From Podospora anserina (Eukaryota): a stretch of 64,000 bases of DNA. The stretch is from NCBI GenBank assembly GCA_017654855.1, contig CM030335.1:2914001-2978000 (forward strand), in the 5' to 3' direction. Shown piece after piece: positions 11,655 to 41,079 of this stretch. Position numbers and translations under genes: made by a program. Below the pieces are notes generated by a model. The model had not been told where the DNA came from and did no database searches. It saw nothing but the letters and a program-made list of their open reading frames with translations. The stretch's first letter is position 1. Every line of letters begins with the position of its first letter.

Positions 11655-14600
11655 ATGGCAGGCGGTGAGCTTACGGGCAACAGCACCGGAGCCCCTCCGC
11701 AAGCTGGTGTCCTCGAGGGCGTCAACCCGATTGTGTATACGCCTTCCAACCCCATCACTCTTTTCATCGTACAGGTATGTCGTTGACACCTCCGCCGTCC
11801 GACCTCACCAACTCCCAGGTCCAGAGCCGCGGGCCGTGTTTCGTTTCACGGCCCACGCGGTGACCGGGCCGTCGTGTTTCTCGGCTTGACTAACAATAGA
11901 CGCGTGCAACAACACACAGGCCATCATTGTCATCATCTTCTGTCAATTACTAGCTTGTAAGTTACCTAGTCATCTCACGAAGCTAGGTTATGCTGACTAA
12001 CCAACCGTTCAGATCCGCTACGATGGCTTCACCAACCTCGTGTTATCGCCGAGGTTCTCGGCGGCATTCTGTTGGGCCCCACGGTGATGATGAGGATACC
12101 CGGGTTTGAGGCCGGTATGTTTCCTAGAGTGAAGATGATGTGTTTGGTGTTACTGACCATATTCAACAGCAATCTTCCCGCCTGCGTCTATGCCAGTCTT
12201 CAACAATGTCGCCAACCTCGGTCTCATCATTTTCTTGTTTCTCGTTGCGTTGGAAGTAGACATCCGTCTCTTCACGCAAAATTGGAAGGCCGCCCTAAGT
12301 GTAGGCATGGCCGGCATGATCTTGCCCTTTGGCCTTGGCTTTGCCATTGCCTGGGGTCTGTACAAGGAGTTTCACGTCGACGAAGCTATTGGCTTTGGCG
12401 TCTTCGGATTGTTCATCGGTACAGCCCTTGCGATCACTGCCTTCCCCGTCCTCTGCCGCATTCTCTCCGAGCTGAACCTCCTCCGCTCGGGTGTCGGTGT
12501 CACCGTTCTGGCTGCCGGCATTGGAAATGACGTGACAGGCTGGGTGCTTCTCGCGCTCTGCGTCGCCTTGACCAACAACAGCAGTGGCTTGGCCGCGCTC
12601 TGGGCCTTGCTCTGCTGCATTGGCTGGACTCTGTTCCTCATCTTCGCCATCCGGCCACCCTTCATTTGGATCCTCAAGCGGACCGGAAGCTTGCATAATG
12701 GCCCTACCCAGGGAATGGTTGCGCTGACCTTGCTCATGGTTCTGGCCTCCTCTTGGTTTACTGGTGGGTTGGTATCATATCCCAAGGATCCCATACATAC
12801 GCTAACTGGACCAGGAATCATTGGTGTTCATCCCATTTTTGGAGCCTTCCTGGTGGGACTGATCTGTCCCCACGATGGCGGTTTCGCTATCAAGCTTACT
12901 GAGAAGATTGAGGATCTTATCTCGGTCCTCTTTCTGCCTTTGTACTTTGCCCTGTCTGGGCTGAAGACCAACCTAGGTCTTCTCAACGATGGTATCACAT
13001 GGGGTTACTGCATCGGGGTCATTGCCTGCGCCTTTGCTGGTAAGATCATTGGTGGCACCCTCGCAGCTCGCGCCAACAAGCTGCTCTGGCGTGAGAGTTT
13101 CACTATTGGCGCCCTGATGTCTTGCAAGGGTCTGGTCGAATTGATCGTGCTTGTGAGTGTCGCGTGACGATCTGGAACTTTTGGTAACGGGCATACTGAC
13201 AATATTGCAGAACATTGGTTACCAGGCAGGTATCCTGTCCGAAACCACCTTCAGCATGTTCGTTGTTATGGCTTTGGTCACAACCGTAGCCACGACCCCC
13301 ATGACAAAGCTGCTGTATCCCAAGTGGTACCAAACCAAGGTTGAGCGATGGAGAAAGGGTGAGATCGACTGGGACGGCAACGAGTTGAACCCCTCTGAGA
13401 GCCTGCAGGGCGGTCTCAAAAAGGGCGTCGACTCTCAGATCCGCCGTCTCATGGTTCATCTCCGTCTCGACAGTCTCCCCAGCCTCTTCACCTTCATCAC
13501 CATCCTCAGCCCCGAAAGCGTCACCAAGAAGCAGGTCGAGCCCGAAACCCCTGATGCCGAGTCCACCGAGGTCATCATCAAGAAACGCCCCCTGGAAGTC
13601 CACGGTATGCGCATTCTCGAGCTCACCGACCGTACCTCATCCGTCATGCACCTCACCGAAGGCGAAGACTTTTACTCTCTCCGCGACCCCGTGGTCAACG
13701 CCTTCCGCACCTTCTCCCAGCTCCACGACGTCGCCGTCTCGGGCCGCGTCGCCGTCGTCCCCGCCGACTCCTACGCCGAAACCCTCATGACCCAAGCCCA
13801 CGAAGTCTCCTCCGACTTCGCCCTGATCCCATGGGGCGAAAGCGGCTCCATGTCCGAAGACCAGTCCTTCCCCGTCACAGCCGACACCAACGAGCGCTTC
13901 AAATCCTTCACCCATCTCGACTTCATCAGCCAGACCCTCGAGAAAGCCTCCGCCATCTGCAACGCAGGCATCTTCATCGACAACGGCTTCGGCGGCATCA
14001 CCAAGCCCGTCGACCGCCCCGAGCTCCAACGCACCAAATCCGCCATCTCCATCCGCAACCAAGCCGACGTCGCCGTCCTCCCCGTCGCCAACAAGTCCCA
14101 CCACGTCTTCTTCCCCTTCTTCGGCGGCGCCGACGACCGCGTCGCGCTGCGCATCGTTCTTCAACTAGCCAAGAACCCCCACGTCTCGGCCACCATCGTC
14201 CGGATCAACAGCAGCGAAAAAGAAAAACTGTCCTCCACTGCCAAATCCGCTGCTGCGTCGACCACCACGACGGAAGACAACAGCGAGACCAACAAGACTG
14301 CTGTCTCTTCTTCTCCCGTCTCTGGAACTGACGTTGAGGATGGTGCGCTTTACGCCACGCTCAAGAGCTCTCTCCCGGAAGACCTCGCTACTAGAGTGAA
14401 TTTCTCTGAGGCGGATGTCCCCGCTGGGAAGGAGGAACTCAAGGAGATTATCCTGCTTGCTCAACAAGCGGTGGGCAACACGAGGGACAATGCCGGTGAT
14501 GTTGTCGTTTTGGGCCGACGCAATGCCAAGAAGGGGTTTGCTGAGGTCGGTGGGAGCAGCAGTAGCGCTGCTGGTGGCGGGGTGCCGGACCTGAAGACTA

Positions 14601-35433: not shown

Positions 35434-36674
35434 TCACCTCATCAGCGCCTTTCTTCCCCGCTTGGCAACTGGCTTGGAAGGTTTGACACCCTCCTCCTCC
35501 TCCTCCTCCTCCTCCTCCTCCTCCTCCTCCTCCTCCTCCTCCTCCTCCTCGGTTTTTTTGACAGCGGCGCGCCGGCCACGTCTAGCCTTGGGTTTTGGCA
35601 TGTCCGTAGACCCCCACTCGGCTTTGCGCTTCCTCCCCTTCGGCGCTGGCTTCTTCTCCTCCTGCCTCCCCCCATCCTCCTCCTCCACCACCTCCTCCTT
35701 GTTCTTTTCCTCCTCAACGACCACAGGGACACCGTCAAGAGTAATCTTCTGCAAGCGAGTAGCATAGCAGCTTGTTCGGTTCCCAACTGTGACGTGAGCC
35801 AACGGTTCTCCCCCAGGGAGTGTAGGGTTCTCCGAGCCCTTGCTCCATCGATACTTGAAAAGCCAATCAGAGGGGAACTGGTGATAGTCACCGAGCACGC
35901 CAACAGCTGTCTGACAAACGTATCGGATCACCTCGTACAGAGTCTTAGTCTGCGCGTCGGTGAGATGGTTGCATTTCTGCTCTGGGTGAATCCGGGACTG
36001 AAACAGCACCTCGTCACCGACCCAGTTTCCGATCCCGCTGATGAACTTCTGGTTGAGAAGCATAGCTTTGACCGCGGCGCGACTGGCGCGACACTTGGAC
36101 TGGAAGTACGCAAGCGTAAACCTGTCCGTGTCTTGCACAGGGTCGGGGCCGTTTTCTTTGAGAGGAGCATGACTGCGAATGTGAGCGCCGGGGCAGTCCA
36201 CGAGACGAACTCTAGCCAGGCGCCGATAGTCGGTGAAAGCCACTTCCACCGCGGGGTTGCAGGTGGTCGTGAGGTGGAATTTTGTGTATTTGGGAGGCCA
36301 GGTTTCGACGCGTGTGTCCGTGTCCCGGTAAAGGGACGAGTAGGATGTTTGGACGCCCCTAATCTGAAGCCAACCCGTCATGCCAAAATGCATCACCACA
36401 TGCGGAGCCTTATCAAGGACGAGCCAGAATAGCTTGCCTTGCGACCCGGAGGAGATGACCTTCCTCCCGGTCAAGGCAGCCGAAACTGCGTCGCCGGTCG
36501 TGCCCGCCTTGCCAAAGACAATTTGGTCGTCGACAGCGGACGCGGTTCTGATGGTCTTGCCGACGAGATGTAGGCGCAGAAAGTGCACGATGCGCGCGAC
36601 TGGGTTTGGGGTTAGTTATCATGATGATACAGAACAGAGAGTCATGAAAACTTACCTTCAGCTATCTCAGGCAT
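35434..36674 (-). CDS. Formamidopyrimidine-DNA glycosylase (Fpg/Nei family); intron 36600-36655
   Basis: N-terminal MPEIAE|V catalytic motif, HFGMTG and the H2TH motif GIGNWVGDEVLF, followed by an acidic poly-Glu and basic tail. Confidence 0.93.
35490..35550. repeat. Coding (TCC)n microsatellite encoding poly-Glu
   Basis: About 20 perfect trinucleotide units. Confidence 0.95.
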
Positions 36675-37395
36675 GTTTGCGAGATGTGATGATCTCTGTC
36701 TAGAAGTCAAAGTGCAAGATGCGACTCGCGTGGTTCGGTGATTTGGAGACCAGCGAGTGCGAGTCCAACTACTTGAAAGCAGCTGAGGCATCAAAGATGT
36801 CAGATAAGACCAGATAGAGATACCAACAGTTGTTGGAAGCAGACTTACAAAGATGGAAGACTTCTTTTGATGTGGAGGTGACAGAGAGTTGATGCGATCA
36901 CGAAGGTGAGAGTTGCATGTTATGGGAAAGGAAATTTTGGGAGAGACGCTCCAGGAAATATTGGGGGGTATATATACATGGGAGGGACAGCGTTGCGGCG
37001 GAACCAAATGTACACATATCTTTCACAGGTACGCTGCTGAAGATGCTCCAACAGGTGGTTGCGCCCCTGAAGCGTTGGCTCTTCGTCGGCGCGTCGTGCT
37101 CTTATGGACGAGGAGTCAAAGGCAAAACACGAATGCTCTGCGACTTCACGTGATGTGGTCAAAGCGCCCATGCTCCCGGCAGCTGGCCAAGCTTTCAAGC
37201 TTTCGACAGCCCCACTCTGCCGCAGCGGGTTTTTCCACTGCCCCACACAAACTGGGCAGCTTCAAAAACTCTGCGACTGCAACTTTTTTCTCTTTCTTCC
37301 TCTCCAACATCAGACCACAACCATCACAACCACCAATCTTCTTCTGGTAAGTCGCATTTGCTTCCGCAGACGCGCTTGACAACAGCAACATTTCT

Positions 37396-37471
37396 ATGAT
37401 GACACAACCAATACCGCAAACTAGAGTCTTTGACCTTCGGGTATGAAACTAGCATTGTCACGTCAGTCTGA
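37396..37471 (+). ncRNA. snR78: Box C/D snoRNA, snR78 homologue (25S Um2421, yeast numbering), with a probable second guide
   Basis: C box ATGATGA and D box CTGA. The guide CAAACTAGAGTC is complementary to LSU GACUCUAGUUUG. Confidence 0.88.
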
Positions 37472-37746
37472 ACTTTGTTGCTGTTGTCGCCGCGCTGCAA
37501 ACCACCGACCTTTGCAATCCGGACAGGACTGACCAGCAAGCAGTACTCTGGCCTCCTACGAGCCACAGTCGCGGATGGGAATCATAACACCTGATTGATG
37601 GGCATCATTTGCCTGGTGGAGGTCGATGGGGACACAGCACCACGATCGACCAACCGACCTTGAACAACTCTCACCACCGGTTGAGGCGTCAACGCTATCA
37701 GGTCAGTGCCCTTCGTCAACCTCACCTCTTCCCATCCTCGGATTTC

Positions 37747-37827
37747 ATGATGTTCTTACTTTGCTTCGGCAAGTTGGAATTACCGACTGAAATATCTTTT
37801 AATGAAGACACAAATGGCTGTTTCTGA
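37747..37827 (+). ncRNA. snR77: Box C/D snoRNA, snR77 homologue (18S Um578)
   Basis: ATGATGT C-box variant and terminal CTGA. The guide GTTGGAATTACCG plus CTGA D' box is complementary to SSU CGGUAAUUCCAGC with one G-U pair. Confidence 0.88.
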
Positions 37828-37963
37828 TTGAATCCAACACTTCTTACCTTTTCACTTCTCCATTGGTTGTGCGGCTTTCAGACGCTAACATCCATCAAGC
37901 AGATCATCCATACCTGTCACTGAGTAAGTCGACAGCTTCTTTCACCAGCACTCGCTGTGCTTT

Positions 37964-38046
37964 ATGATGAAACGGCACTGGGCTCCGAAATTCCATGAGC
38001 AAGACACGCCACTTTCGCGACAGGCCTAGAAAACCTCGTCCACTGA
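37964..38046 (+). ncRNA. snR76: Box C/D snoRNA, snR76 homologue (25S Cm2197)
   Basis: ATGATGA and terminal CTGA. The guide GCACTGGGC plus CCGA D' box is complementary to LSU GCCCAGUGC. Confidence 0.85.
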
Positions 38047-38199
38047 TCAGCACATCCATCTCTGTCTTTTGCACACGCCGCATGGCAGAGAGTACGGGCT
38101 AACTCTCCTGGAAGTTGATCGGATTGTTTGATGCACCTGGATCGTTGGGGTTGTCTTTAGGGTAAGTTTTATCGACTTTTTTTTCCCCATCACACTTTT

Positions 38200-38279
38200 A
38201 TGATGACTCTAGATGACGAGTCCTATACGGGATTCCCGATGCGGACAACCTATTTTTTATACCATTCATGCCTATCTGA
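38200..38279 (+). ncRNA. snR75: Box C/D snoRNA, snR75 homologue (25S Gm2288)
   Basis: ATGATGA and terminal CTGA. The guide TAGATGACGAG is complementary to LSU CUCGUCAUCUA, and an extra CCATTCATGC is complementary to the nearby GCAUGAAUGG. Confidence 0.9.
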
Positions 38280-38449
38280 AAATTACACACTTCCATCACC
38301 TTTTGAAGTTGCAGGAGTGAGCTTTCGCTGACCAACTTCAAGATTTTAAGACATTTCCTCTGACGATTGCTCGACACCCATTCGACCTCTTCTCATTTTC
38401 TGGTACGTTGTCGATGTCACCACTCCTCACCCCAGCACCACTGCACATT

Positions 38450-38523
38450 ATGATGACATGACAAAAAAATTGACAAGCATATGTCGGAGCCCTTCAAGCG
38501 TTGATGATAAGGTCTATGTCTGA
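38450..38523 (+). ncRNA. snR74: Box C/D snoRNA, snR74 homologue (18S Am28)
   Basis: ATGATGA, C' box TTGATGA and terminal CTGA. The guide GACAAGCATATG is complementary to SSU CAUAUGCUUGUC. Confidence 0.9.
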
Positions 38524-38688
38524 ATGTTCCCATGCCACATCACCTTTTGACCACTTGCAGTGATCATTGGCTAACTGTCGCAGATTGTTTTGATCATGAT
38601 GATGAGCACGATGGTCTGTTGTCCTTTTGACCCGATCCTCAACGTAAGCATCCACTTTCCTTCTTGATTACCACCACCCCCGACTTTT

Positions 38689-38769
38689 ATGATGATTTAA
38701 AATATTATCACGACGGTCTACATAGCAATCGCTTTGATGAAATGGCCAGTGACATGGCAAGATTTCTGA
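38689..38769 (+). ncRNA. snR73: Box C/D snoRNA, snR73 homologue (25S Cm2959)
   Basis: ATGATGA, C' box TTGATGA and terminal CTGA. The guide TCACGACGGTC is complementary to LSU GACCGUCGUGA. Confidence 0.9.
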
Positions 38770-39053
38770 TAAAGTCATCCATCATCACCTTCTTGATGTT
38801 TGTCTTGTGAATGTTCATGGGCTAACTCGTCCAAGTGTTCAGCGTTGTTGCTTTACTGGGGCTCATTTTTCACTATAATCATGACTCTCTCGTCGTGATA
38901 TGGGGAAGAATACTGGTTTTTGTATTGAGCCTAATATTCTGCTCTACAGTACCATATGGAAATTGTCGAGTTTAAAGTATTCTTGTTTCCCTCTGTCCTG
39001 TGCTCGGCCGTCTCCCGCTGTCGCCAGCTGTATCGCGTCCCCGGCAACGCGAT

Positions 39054-41079
39054 TTACAACAGCAGCAACCCAGCCAACACGCTCACCATCAATAGCCCAC
39101 GCGCGGGGTTGTCACAAGCAGAGGAGCCTCCACTGCTAGACGTTGGCTTCGCCGCGGAAAGTGACGTGGTAAATATTCCCGTCATGATCGTTGAGGTCGG
39201 CGCGGCCTCCTCCCCAGCAGCCTCACCATCACTCCTCTGCCCCGGCAACTGCCAATCACCGGCAGAATTATACCAAACCCCGTTGATCACGACCCCTTCT
39301 CCCCTCAACACGGCCCTCACAGACTCGTCATCGCACGTATCTGCCACCTTTCGGATATAGCACCTCGCATTGGGGACATTTGTCGCGAGCAGCTCCGGCC
39401 CTGTCTTGTCCGCTTCGGGGGTGCCCTTTGTGGCAAAGGAGGCAAGATTGACTTTTTCGCCTGTGCTGATTGAGGATCCGAGGATGATCCGGGAAAAGAT
39501 TTCGAAAGTGGTTTCGGGCTGGGAGTGAGAGGGGAAGTGACCTGCGTCGTAGACGCGGGTGAAGGAGAGGTTGGAGAGCTGGCGGGTTGAGCCGCCGGTG
39601 TAGGTTTTGTTGGTGAGGAGGGGGGCGTAGCCGGTTGTATGAAAAGCATTATACCGCGAGAAGGATCCGGCGATAGAGAGAGAGGTTGATTGCCCGCTGT
39701 ACCAGTTGCAGAGGTAGTCTCTGTCGCCGGACAGCAGGGCGATCCGAACCCCTTGGGATAGTAGCTCTTTGATGGCTACCAGCGGGTCGTCCCGAAGGGC
39801 GGGGAGGGGGGGAGGGAGATCGGTGAAGTTTATTGGTGAGCCAATAGCGGATAGAAACTTGGGTGAGTTGAGAAAGGTAAGATAAGTCTGGTTTGGCAAG
39901 GGGTCGAAGGAGGGGGAGGAGATGTCGTATAACGACCTTGAGGTGTGTTGCTGGTATGGGATTGTGAGGCCGTAGATGCACTCCCAGGCTTGGAGGCAGA
40001 CGAGGAGGGTTTCGGAATTTGTCGAGGAGGAGGGGTGGCGGCAGGGGAGGAGGAGATCGGAGCAGCCGCGGCGGCGGTGGTAGGCTGACATGATGGGGGT
40101 GGTTTGATCTTGGGTTAGTAGCGGGAGGTGGAAGGTGTTGTTGAGGGCCATGGTTACGTAGGATTGGGCTTGGGACAAAGGGTCGAGGCCGCAGGGGGAG
40201 AGGAGGCCGAGGGAGGTGATTTTGATGGGGAGGGTGGTGGATAGGGTGGTGGATGAGGTGCTGGGATTTTGGGAGTGGAAGTAGGATGCGAGGAGGGCGG
40301 CGAGGGGGGCGGTGGTGCCTTTTGCGAAGAGGGATATCCCTGTGGAAGAGTTGGAGGGGGTGTTGTATTGGGGAAAAGTTGATAGGAAGGTCTGGAGGAG
40401 ATGCCAGACTAGTCGGGCTGTCACTGTGGTGTTGGCTGATGAGTTCAGCGGGTAAGGGGAAGAGAATGTGCCGTTCATGAAGGCCCAAGGGCTGCTCCAT
40501 TTGGGGACGGGTTCAGGAGGAAAGATGGTTGTTGCGTTGTAGGAATCGTAGCTGCCGTTGGTGATGGGGGTGGTGTAGGAGAAGCCTACTGAGGGCTGCG
40601 GGCTTGGTTAATATCACGAACTCTGGCGCGGAGAGAATAAACTTTACAAGATCGATATACAGCATGTTTGATGCCCTGTCCCATCCCCATTCCCTTGCCT
40701 TGACCTCGAGGTGATCTTTATCCTTTTCTACCACCTCACAAGGACCATTCTCTTGCCAAAAGCCTGACATGGAGCTCCCTCCAGACCCGCCATTCAGCCA
40801 TATTGTGAGTGTCGAAGTCGGCTCCCGTGCTTCGATAAACCAAAAGAACAAGCTGGTCGACCGACCCTCAACTGGGATGTTGACCCAGCCAGAGAACTGC
40901 TTCTGTGCGTCGAATGCCGTCTTACAGGCACCCTTCGGAACTTTGTAGGAAATGGTGATATTTGGGTCGTGTGCGGCGTTTAGTGTTGTCAAGTTGGCAT
41001 CTTGTAAGGGGACAAACTGAGCAAGCGCAGTAACTAATAAGCACGCGCAAAACAACCTGACGCTGCGTGATAAGAGCAT
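39054..41079 (-). CDS. Secreted/GPI-anchored serine carboxypeptidase (S10)-like protein, probably catalytically inactive; intron 40596-40648
   Basis: Signal peptide, LFFWFIEAR, WLNGGSGGSSM, ENGPC, SNMLYID, GDRDYLCNW, FTRVYDAGH and a hydrophobic C-terminus. The GESYxG motif is absent. Confidence 0.85.

Follow-up and report, generated by a model that had tools for sequence, protein, structure and literature searches.

Positions 37280-38900 on the forward strand of the 64-kb window analysed here (64,000 nucleotides (nt) of Podospora anserina contig CM030335.1; all positions are those of the window) very probably hold the orthologue of the fungal small nucleolar RNA (snoRNA) gene cluster I, a spliced non-coding host gene with six intronic box C/D snoRNAs. 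The only evident products of the host are its six intron-encoded box C/D snoRNAs, which lie in the order snR78/72, snR77, snR76, snR75, snR74 and snR73. Direct support at the locus comes from snoRNA homology, guide complementarity and the splicing of introns 1-4; what we infer is that introns 5 and 6 are spliced, where the mature RNAs end, and that ribosomal RNA (rRNA) is methylated. An initial annotation of the same DNA had proposed a non-coding host carrying the series snR78-77-76-75-74-73, and Rfam matches, guides, gene order and spliced contigs all agree with that proposal. The snoRNA set and its order on one strand, 78(/72)-77-76-75-74-73, correspond to those given for cluster I in the text of PMC3596301.

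All six ATGATG(A/T)...CTGA units listed in the initial annotation are present on the forward strand, within 37396-38769 from the first C-box start to the last D-box end, and are spaced about 240 nt apart. C-box and D-box motifs occur in six of six units, with box C reading ATGATGA in every unit except unit 2 (ATGATGT) and CTGA closing the unit 74-83 nt later. In each of the six, the flanks show complementary stretches of 3-6 bp immediately beyond the two boxes, which would form the terminal stem; they range from GCAACA/TGTTGC in unit 1 and GACTTT/AAAGTC in unit 6 to only TTT/AAA in unit 4. Searching both strands of the 64-kb window with the pattern ATGATGW-N55-80-CTGA returns 11 matches, compared with a mean of 2.2 in dinucleotide-shuffled sequence, a number that 0 of 100 shuffles attain. 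More than half of them, six, fall in this 1.4-kb stretch, on one strand. The other five (at 12087, 13506, 19479, 22576 and 46306) do not rise above noise in their rRNA complementarity (8-9 nt), have no Rfam match at gathering score in the whole-window scan, and are probably chance occurrences.

The whole window was scanned with Rfam at gathering thresholds, and 37100-39100 was also scanned permissively. Exactly four gathering-level matches are found in the 64 kb, all of them within this stretch and all full length. Unit 4 matches snR75 (RF01185) with 75.5 bits against a gathering threshold of 40 (E 1.5e-13). Unit 3 matches Afu_513 (RF01514) with 67.0 bits against 48, overlapped by a 30.8-bit match to snR76, and unit 2 matches Afu_300 (RF01509) with 56.8 bits against 40, overlapped by a 27.4-bit match to snoR77Y. 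Unit 6 matches snR73 (RF01207) with 37.6 bits against 37, a margin of only 0.6 bit. The initial annotation had held that its proposal would fall if Rfam returned nothing; four of the six units reach the gathering score and two score below it.

To place the guides on rRNA, we used ribosomal DNA (rDNA) in fungal metagenome contigs found by the ITS1-F primer. The scan gave 106 stretches, 80 loci of which were listed, and in four of these the limits of 18S, 5.8S and 25S were sought with Rfam. Three loci with complete 18S, 5.8S and 25S (L067, L017 and L075) serve as references, and L004, L038 and L058 are left out of all counts. Each of these last three has an ITS1-F site and behaves unlike standard rDNA, L004 giving a weak 5.8S match only and L038 and L058 having conserved guide targets missing or altered.

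Antisense elements of 9-13 nt had been proposed, and units 1-6 indeed carry perfect antisense runs of 12, 11, 9, 11, 12 and 13 nt. Run lengths are equal in L067, L017 and L075, save that unit 4 is matched in L067 and L075 only (its guide site differs in L017) and unit 5 has 11 nt in L075. Each run stops 1 nt before the Rfam-aligned box D′ position in six of six units. Applying the rule that the guide's fifth position upstream of D′ pairs with the target nucleotide (D′+5), with positions in L067 numbering, we obtain the predicted sites listed in Table 1 for the small-subunit (SSU) and large-subunit (LSU) rRNA; they are the fungal equivalents of the sites that the initial annotation had named as Am28, Um578, Cm2197, Gm2288, Um2421 and Cm2959. 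The three central LSU sites (C2175, G2266 and U2399) lie 91 and 133 nt apart, as do the named yeast sites 2197, 2288 and 2421. The same 91/133-nt spacing separates Cm2159, Gm2250 and Um2383 in the 26S rRNA of Neurospora crassa, as given in Table 1 of PMC2780460, and L2288 and L2197 are described in PMC3116282 as the sites of snR75 and snR76, respectively. When each unit is dinucleotide-shuffled 1000 times, the observed run in L067 is reached by 19, 129, 733, 79, 20 and 5 shuffles for units 1-6; nine non-snoRNA pieces of 85 nt from the locus, taken as a control, reach 8-10 nt of rRNA complementarity.

In unit 1, the stretch 37459-37466 before box D forms an 8-nt pairing with LSU that points to A888 of L067, and its box D guide probably targets the A876 equivalent. 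Unit 1 can thus be read, from sequence, as a fused snR78/72 double guide of the kind described for N. crassa CD5 and for Euascomycetes in the text of PMC2780460 and PMC3596301. The initial naming of this unit as snR78 is borne out for the snR78 guide but is incomplete, the unit being read here as a double guide with an additional snR72-type element. In unit 4, the element at 38262-38271 is a 10-nt perfect match to LSU 2285-2294, 12 nt 3′ of the guide target; it is an accessory pairing element of a type that was shown to make methylation more efficient in yeast. TAGAAA at 38027-38032 in unit 3 can pair directly beside the rRNA target of the guide; this match is weak on its own, and unit 3 probably also has an accessory pairing element. 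According to the accessible text of PMC3116282, snR75, snR76 and snR73 are among 13 yeast snoRNAs with conserved extra base-pairing beside the target, and methylation drops 4-5-fold (snR75) and 2-3-fold (snR76) when these regions are mutated. For the box D guides of units 2 and 6, no rRNA target reaches the reporting threshold in the rDNA used, and the rRNA matches of those of units 3 and 5 are wrongly placed relative to the box, none being convincing. On the box D side of unit 2, the stretch 37815-37822 (TGGCTGTT) is able to form a duplex with 18S 566-573, immediately next to the target of the D′ guide, and this element is conserved in the Afu_300 consensus. The pairing amounts to 8 bp, six Watson-Crick and two G-U, and such runs are expected by chance. 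For CD24, the snR77 homologue of N. crassa, a 15-nt match to U5 snRNA is predicted instead (PMC2780460, as far as its text is available).

Splicing was followed in the contigs of four runs (X1, X2, X5 and X10) from four studies, placed on 36700-39300. Introns 1-4 are defined by joints in these contigs, and a 66-nt intron belonging to the minus-strand gene upstream is likewise absent from contigs of all four runs. One contig, X2 record 14, starts at 37277, joins 37345/6 to 37543/4 and carries exons 1-2-3-4, while X5 record 18 and X10 record 8 each carry exons 2-3-4-5 in a single contig; units 1-4 therefore lie in introns of one transcript. The proposal of six spliced introns stands in part: introns 1-4 are seen as joints, and introns 5 and 6 are placed from splice signals only. 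The expected intron size of about 180-200 nt agrees with the lengths found (197, 198, 191, 181, 181 and 192 nt). An exon of 21 nt, in contrast, had been predicted where the contigs give 24 nt (37900-37923), the first AG of the AAG|CAG acceptor being the one used. At this tandem acceptor of intron 2 (37896-37902), the second AG would give 21 nt, a form seen in none of the contigs.

The intron architecture is uniform. In all six introns, box C starts 38-49 nt downstream of the donor site, the branch-point A is 51-61 nt beyond box D, and a further 9-12 nt lead to the first AG (9-10 nt in putative introns 5 and 6). Across the window, hexamers resembling a 5′ splice site occur 1.16 times and branch-like pentamers 1.34 times per kb; at these frequencies, we estimate that both signals would fall by chance into the expected 11-12-nt slots with a probability of about 2e-4 per unit. 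One piece of a 119-nt contig of X10 spans exactly 37960-38048, which is the Rfam span of unit 3. This piece may reflect an abundant mature snoRNA, although contigs are unable to show RNA ends. Single contigs also differ from the window: one of X2 lacks 2 nt at 38592, within the ATGATGATGA run that belongs to putative exon 6, one of X5 has A>G at 38702, a spacer position of unit 6 that touches neither the boxes nor the guide, and one of X10 has C>T at 38998. All three are probably strain differences.

Table 1. Box C/D units, guide elements with their predicted rRNA targets, and exons and introns of the host gene.
Feature	Position	Strand	Length	Details
Unit 1, snR78/72-type double guide (candidate)	37396-37471	+		C box 37396-37402; D′ TTGA 37430-37433; D box 37468-37471
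Unit 2, snR77-type (Afu_300)	37747-37827	+		D′ CTGA 37787-37790
Unit 3, snR76-type (Afu_513)	37964-38046	+		D′ CCGA 37985-37988
Unit 4, snR75	38200-38279	+		D′ CCTA 38222-38225; accessory pairing element 38262-38271
Unit 5, snR74/SNORD27-type	38450-38523	+		D′ CGGA 38485-38488
Unit 6, snR73	38689-38769	+		divergent D′ CATA 38721-38724
Unit 1 guide	37417-37428		12 nt	LSU U2399 (yeast 25S U2421 equivalent)
Unit 2 guide	37775-37785		11 nt	SSU U577 (yeast 18S U578 equivalent)
Unit 3 guide	37975-37983		9 nt	LSU C2175 (yeast 25S C2197 equivalent)
Unit 4 guide	38210-38220		11 nt	LSU G2266 (yeast 25S G2288 equivalent)
Unit 5 guide	38472-38483		12 nt	SSU A28 (yeast 18S A28 equivalent)
Unit 6 guide	38708-38720		13 nt	LSU C2928 (yeast 25S C2959 equivalent)
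Exon 1	37277-37346	+		pyrimidine-rich; 5′ end is the furthest contig reach (X2 record 14), not a mapped start
Intron 1	37347-37543	+	197 nt	GTAAGT...CTGAC...CAG; joint in 4 of 4 runs
Exon 2	37544-37701	+	158 nt	spliced contigs in 4 of 4 runs
Intron 2	37702-37899	+	198 nt	GTCAGT...CTAAC...AAG, second AG 3 nt further; joint in 4 of 4 runs
Exon 3 (mini-exon)	37900-37923	+	24 nt	two bounding joints, 4 of 4 runs
Intron 3	37924-38114	+	191 nt	GTAAGT...CTAAC...AAG; joint in 4 of 4 runs
Exon 4	38115-38161	+	47 nt	joints on both sides
Intron 4	38162-38342	+	181 nt	GTAAGT...CTGAC...AAG; joint in 3 of 4 runs, none in X2
Exon 5	38343-38402	+	60 nt	5′ boundary by joint; 3′ boundary placed from GTACGT
Putative intron 5	38403-38583	+	181 nt	GTACGT...CTAAC...CAG; splice signals only
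Putative exon 6	38584-38643	+	60 nt	placed from splice signals only
Putative intron 6	38644-38835	+	192 nt (199 nt with next AG)	GTAAGC...CTAAC...AAG; splice signals only
Putative last exon	38836-38900	+		3′ end unmapped; abuts 3′ end of convergent carboxypeptidase gene

A number of points weigh against a complete, six-intron cluster I and are gathered here. Two of the units fall short of Rfam family membership: unit 5 scores 34.7 bits with SNORD27 (RF00086, a stand-in for snR74) against a gathering threshold of 52, and unit 1 scores 21.3 bits (E 3.2) with snR78 (RF01176) against 48. In the permissive scan of 37100-39100, the snR74 model itself has no match and unit 1 also matches snoTBR7 at 25.6 bits. 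The guide of unit 5 (GACAAGCATATG) is identical to the SNORD27 consensus and has 18S A28 as its target, suggesting that unit 5 works like snR74/U27 despite failing the Rfam threshold. The guide core of unit 1 (CAAACTAGAGT) agrees with the snR78 model consensus, its 12-nt guide (CAAACTAGAGTC) being antisense to LSU, and a sub-threshold score is to be expected of unit 1 if it has the fused snR78/72 form described in PMC3596301. The snR72-type duplex of unit 1 reaches 8 nt with the three rDNAs, compared with 10 nt reported in N. crassa. By length, the 9-nt guide of unit 3 does no better than its shuffles (733 of 1000) and the guide of unit 2 is marginal (129 of 1000); the assignment of these two units therefore rests on Rfam homology and position. 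The data sets themselves call for caution as well: the rDNA is not Podospora's own, the four runs were picked from 14 partial matches whose label, 'RNA?', is a guess, and the contigs reveal neither strand, ends nor abundance.

A further point concerns the 3′ part of the host. Contigs of the four runs contain no joint for intron 5 or intron 6. X1 record 4 and X10 record 8 have intron 4 removed and then run 91 and 34 nt into intron 5, so that they cross its 5′ splice site unspliced, as X5 record 20 also does; X1 record 5 and X10 record 11 cross the 3′ end of intron 6 unspliced. Three low-depth contigs (X5 record 20, X1 record 5 and X10 record 11) account for the unspliced coverage of the intron 5-6 part. 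X1 record 3 is likewise unspliced over introns 2-3, and because unspliced contigs also span these introns, the read-through at introns 5 and 6 is weak evidence on its own. The absence of joints here proves neither retention nor splicing.

These observations would suit a hybrid arrangement in which snoRNAs 1-4 are freed by splicing and units 5 and 6 lie in an unspliced 3′ tail, from which they would be released by endo- and exonucleolytic, yeast-like processing, the locus being an intermediate of de-intronization. Its tail would rarely or never be spliced and would overlap the 3′ end of the convergent carboxypeptidase gene. Besides the missing joints (none in four runs) and the two contigs that continue into intron 5 after removal of intron 4, the idea draws on the de-intronization of the cluster in Saccharomyces that is described in PMC3596301. 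Putative introns 5 and 6, however, keep a consensus 5′ splice site and a perfect CTAAC with the first AG 9-10 nt further on, and their geometry equals that of the four confirmed introns, with the chance probability of about 2e-4 per unit given above. Low-depth contigs, moreover, drop minor forms, and Euascomycete clusters are all intronic according to the text of PMC3596301. We therefore consider a hybrid of this kind, including its rarely spliced tail, unlikely; if true, the locus would be a living intermediate that links the intronic form of cluster I to the polycistronic one.

The six-intron host gene that we prefer shows little coding capacity. Its spliced model measures 484 nt and contains ATG-initiated open reading frames (ORFs) of 38, 36 and 21 amino acids (aa), none longer than 38 aa, and Pfam has no match for any of the eight 53-91-aa ORFs of the unspliced gap. 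A host of this type, a spliced RNA devoid of a long ORF, is what cluster I would lead one to expect. The initial annotation had named a conserved protein encoded by the spliced exons as a further ground for abandoning the non-coding host; the longest ATG ORF of 38 aa and the eight gap ORFs (0/8 in Pfam) give no sign of one. The three short ORFs could still be taken to indicate a protein-coding or micropeptide gene that hosts snoRNAs, as ribosomal-protein hosts do, with a functional peptide made from the spliced exons. The size limit of 38 aa and the Pfam result speak against a coding host, as do the poorly conserved host exons with short ORFs only that are described for these clusters in the text of PMC3596301 and PMC2780460, and we regard it as very unlikely.

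Independent snoRNA genes are known in fungi and make up nine of the 55 box C/D genes of N. crassa in the account of PMC2780460, so that six separate genes with their own promoters and no common host transcript might be imagined here. The contigs that join exons 1-2-3-4 and 2-3-4-5 over the snoRNA-bearing introns contradict this for units 1-4, leaving the idea barely tenable. A functionless chance arrangement of C/D-like motifs, which might be thought of given that short C and D boxes are frequent and that the window holds five other pattern matches, is refuted by Rfam E-values down to 1.5e-13, by the 11 matches against 2.2 expected (0 of 100 shuffles) and by guides that point to known methylation sites with exact spacing.

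The host gene is flanked by two protein-coding genes on the minus strand. Upstream, at 35434-37096, lies a DNA glycosylase gene of the Fpg/Nei type (Pfam H2TH and Fapy_DNA_glyco), whose 66-nt intron (36783-36848) is spliced out in four of four runs. Its contigs reach 37049-37096, and the gene is divergent from the host with only about 180 bp between them, the host transcript having this promoter region of about 180 bp in common with the glycosylase gene. For N. crassa and Aspergillus fumigatus, the available text of PMC4138321 reports no motif common to snoRNA and ribosomal-protein genes. Downstream, at 38502-40478, lies a serine carboxypeptidase gene (Peptidase_S10) that is convergent with the host. 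In three runs, the carboxypeptidase contigs stop at 38899-38942, with sequencing-adapter letters following the end in two cases. One carboxypeptidase-side contig of X2 extends as far back as 38502 and covers unit 6, so that the two genes abut or overlap at their 3′ ends.

The closest described counterpart is cluster I of N. crassa (Liu et al. 2009, PMC2780460). In the parts of that paper available to us, the set is the same, with CD5 corresponding to snR78 and snR72, CD24 to snR77, CD12 to snR76, CD7 to snR75, CD21 to snR74 and CD31 to snR73, all of them intronic and on chromosome VI. Both loci have a non-coding host with short ORFs and the same predicted targets, and one snoRNA per intron, putatively so for introns 5 and 6 here. 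The RNAs of CD21 and CD31 measure 69 and 101 nt, compared with C-to-D spans of 74 and 81 nt here; the lengths differ from those of N. crassa, and the locus therefore comes from another species. Exon skipping is reported in N. crassa, whereas none is seen in the contigs of our four runs, and RNA support covers only four of six introns here. More broadly, 45 of the 55 box C/D snoRNA genes of N. crassa are intronic and nine are independent; five clusters (I-V) are conserved with yeast, and their UHG-like hosts, with ORFs of only 159-267 bp, were confirmed by reverse transcription PCR (PMC2780460).

The account of fungal cluster I published in 2013 (PMC3596301) gives the series snR78-77-76-75-74-73-72, in accordance with the yeast order to which the initial annotation had referred, and states that Euascomycete clusters lie wholly in introns and that every Euascomycete has a fused snR78/72 intron. 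The Podospora locus shares the order and the lack of a separate snR72 intron, snR72 being fused with snR78, and its layout is probably all-intronic as well; exons are poorly conserved and ORF-poor in that account, and nothing of substance differs here as far as its text goes.

The snR72-snR78 cluster of Saccharomyces cerevisiae comprises the same snoRNA families, in the same gene order and with the same rRNA targets as here, but consists of seven separate snoRNAs in an intron-less precursor, whereas the Podospora locus has six units in the confirmed or putative introns of a spliced host. The precursor of the S. cerevisiae cluster is cut by the endonuclease Rnt1. Mammalian UHG (SNHG1) and GAS5 are comparable in that they, too, are non-coding hosts with several introns, each of which holds one box C/D snoRNA; the likeness extends to dispensable, poorly conserved exons and to a first exon that begins in a pyrimidine-rich stretch, but the host genes and snoRNA sets are not homologous to this locus. 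Afu_300 and Afu_513 of A. fumigatus (RF01509 and RF01514), which score highest among Rfam models for units 2 and 3, matching over their full length and beyond the gathering threshold, are entries for single RNAs and not for a host gene.

Going by what is established for snoRNAs, RNA polymerase II would produce a primary transcript from about 37277 to about 38900, and the snoRNP (small nucleolar ribonucleoprotein) core proteins, fibrillarin/Nop1, Nop56, Nop58 and Snu13, would assemble on each C/D motif during intron splicing. The excised lariat would then be debranched and trimmed by exonucleases down to the snoRNP, yielding RNAs of about 75-85 nt. Each snoRNA would pair with pre-rRNA through the element upstream of box D′, allowing the methyltransferase to 2′-O-methylate the rRNA nucleotide that faces the fifth guide position counted upstream from the box; the predicted targets are the equivalents of A28 and U578 in yeast 18S and of C2197, G2288, U2421 and C2959 in yeast 25S.

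As this architecture was already published for filamentous fungi in 2009 and 2013, the locus is an ordinary one: it is one more case of the pattern published for Neurospora crassa (2009) and Euascomycetes (2013) and raises no new question. Its value is mainly for annotation, as ORF-based gene callers leave this 1.6-kb stretch empty. What such an annotation would gain in Podospora anserina is a spliced non-coding transcript and six guide RNAs for a predicted seven conserved rRNA methylations.

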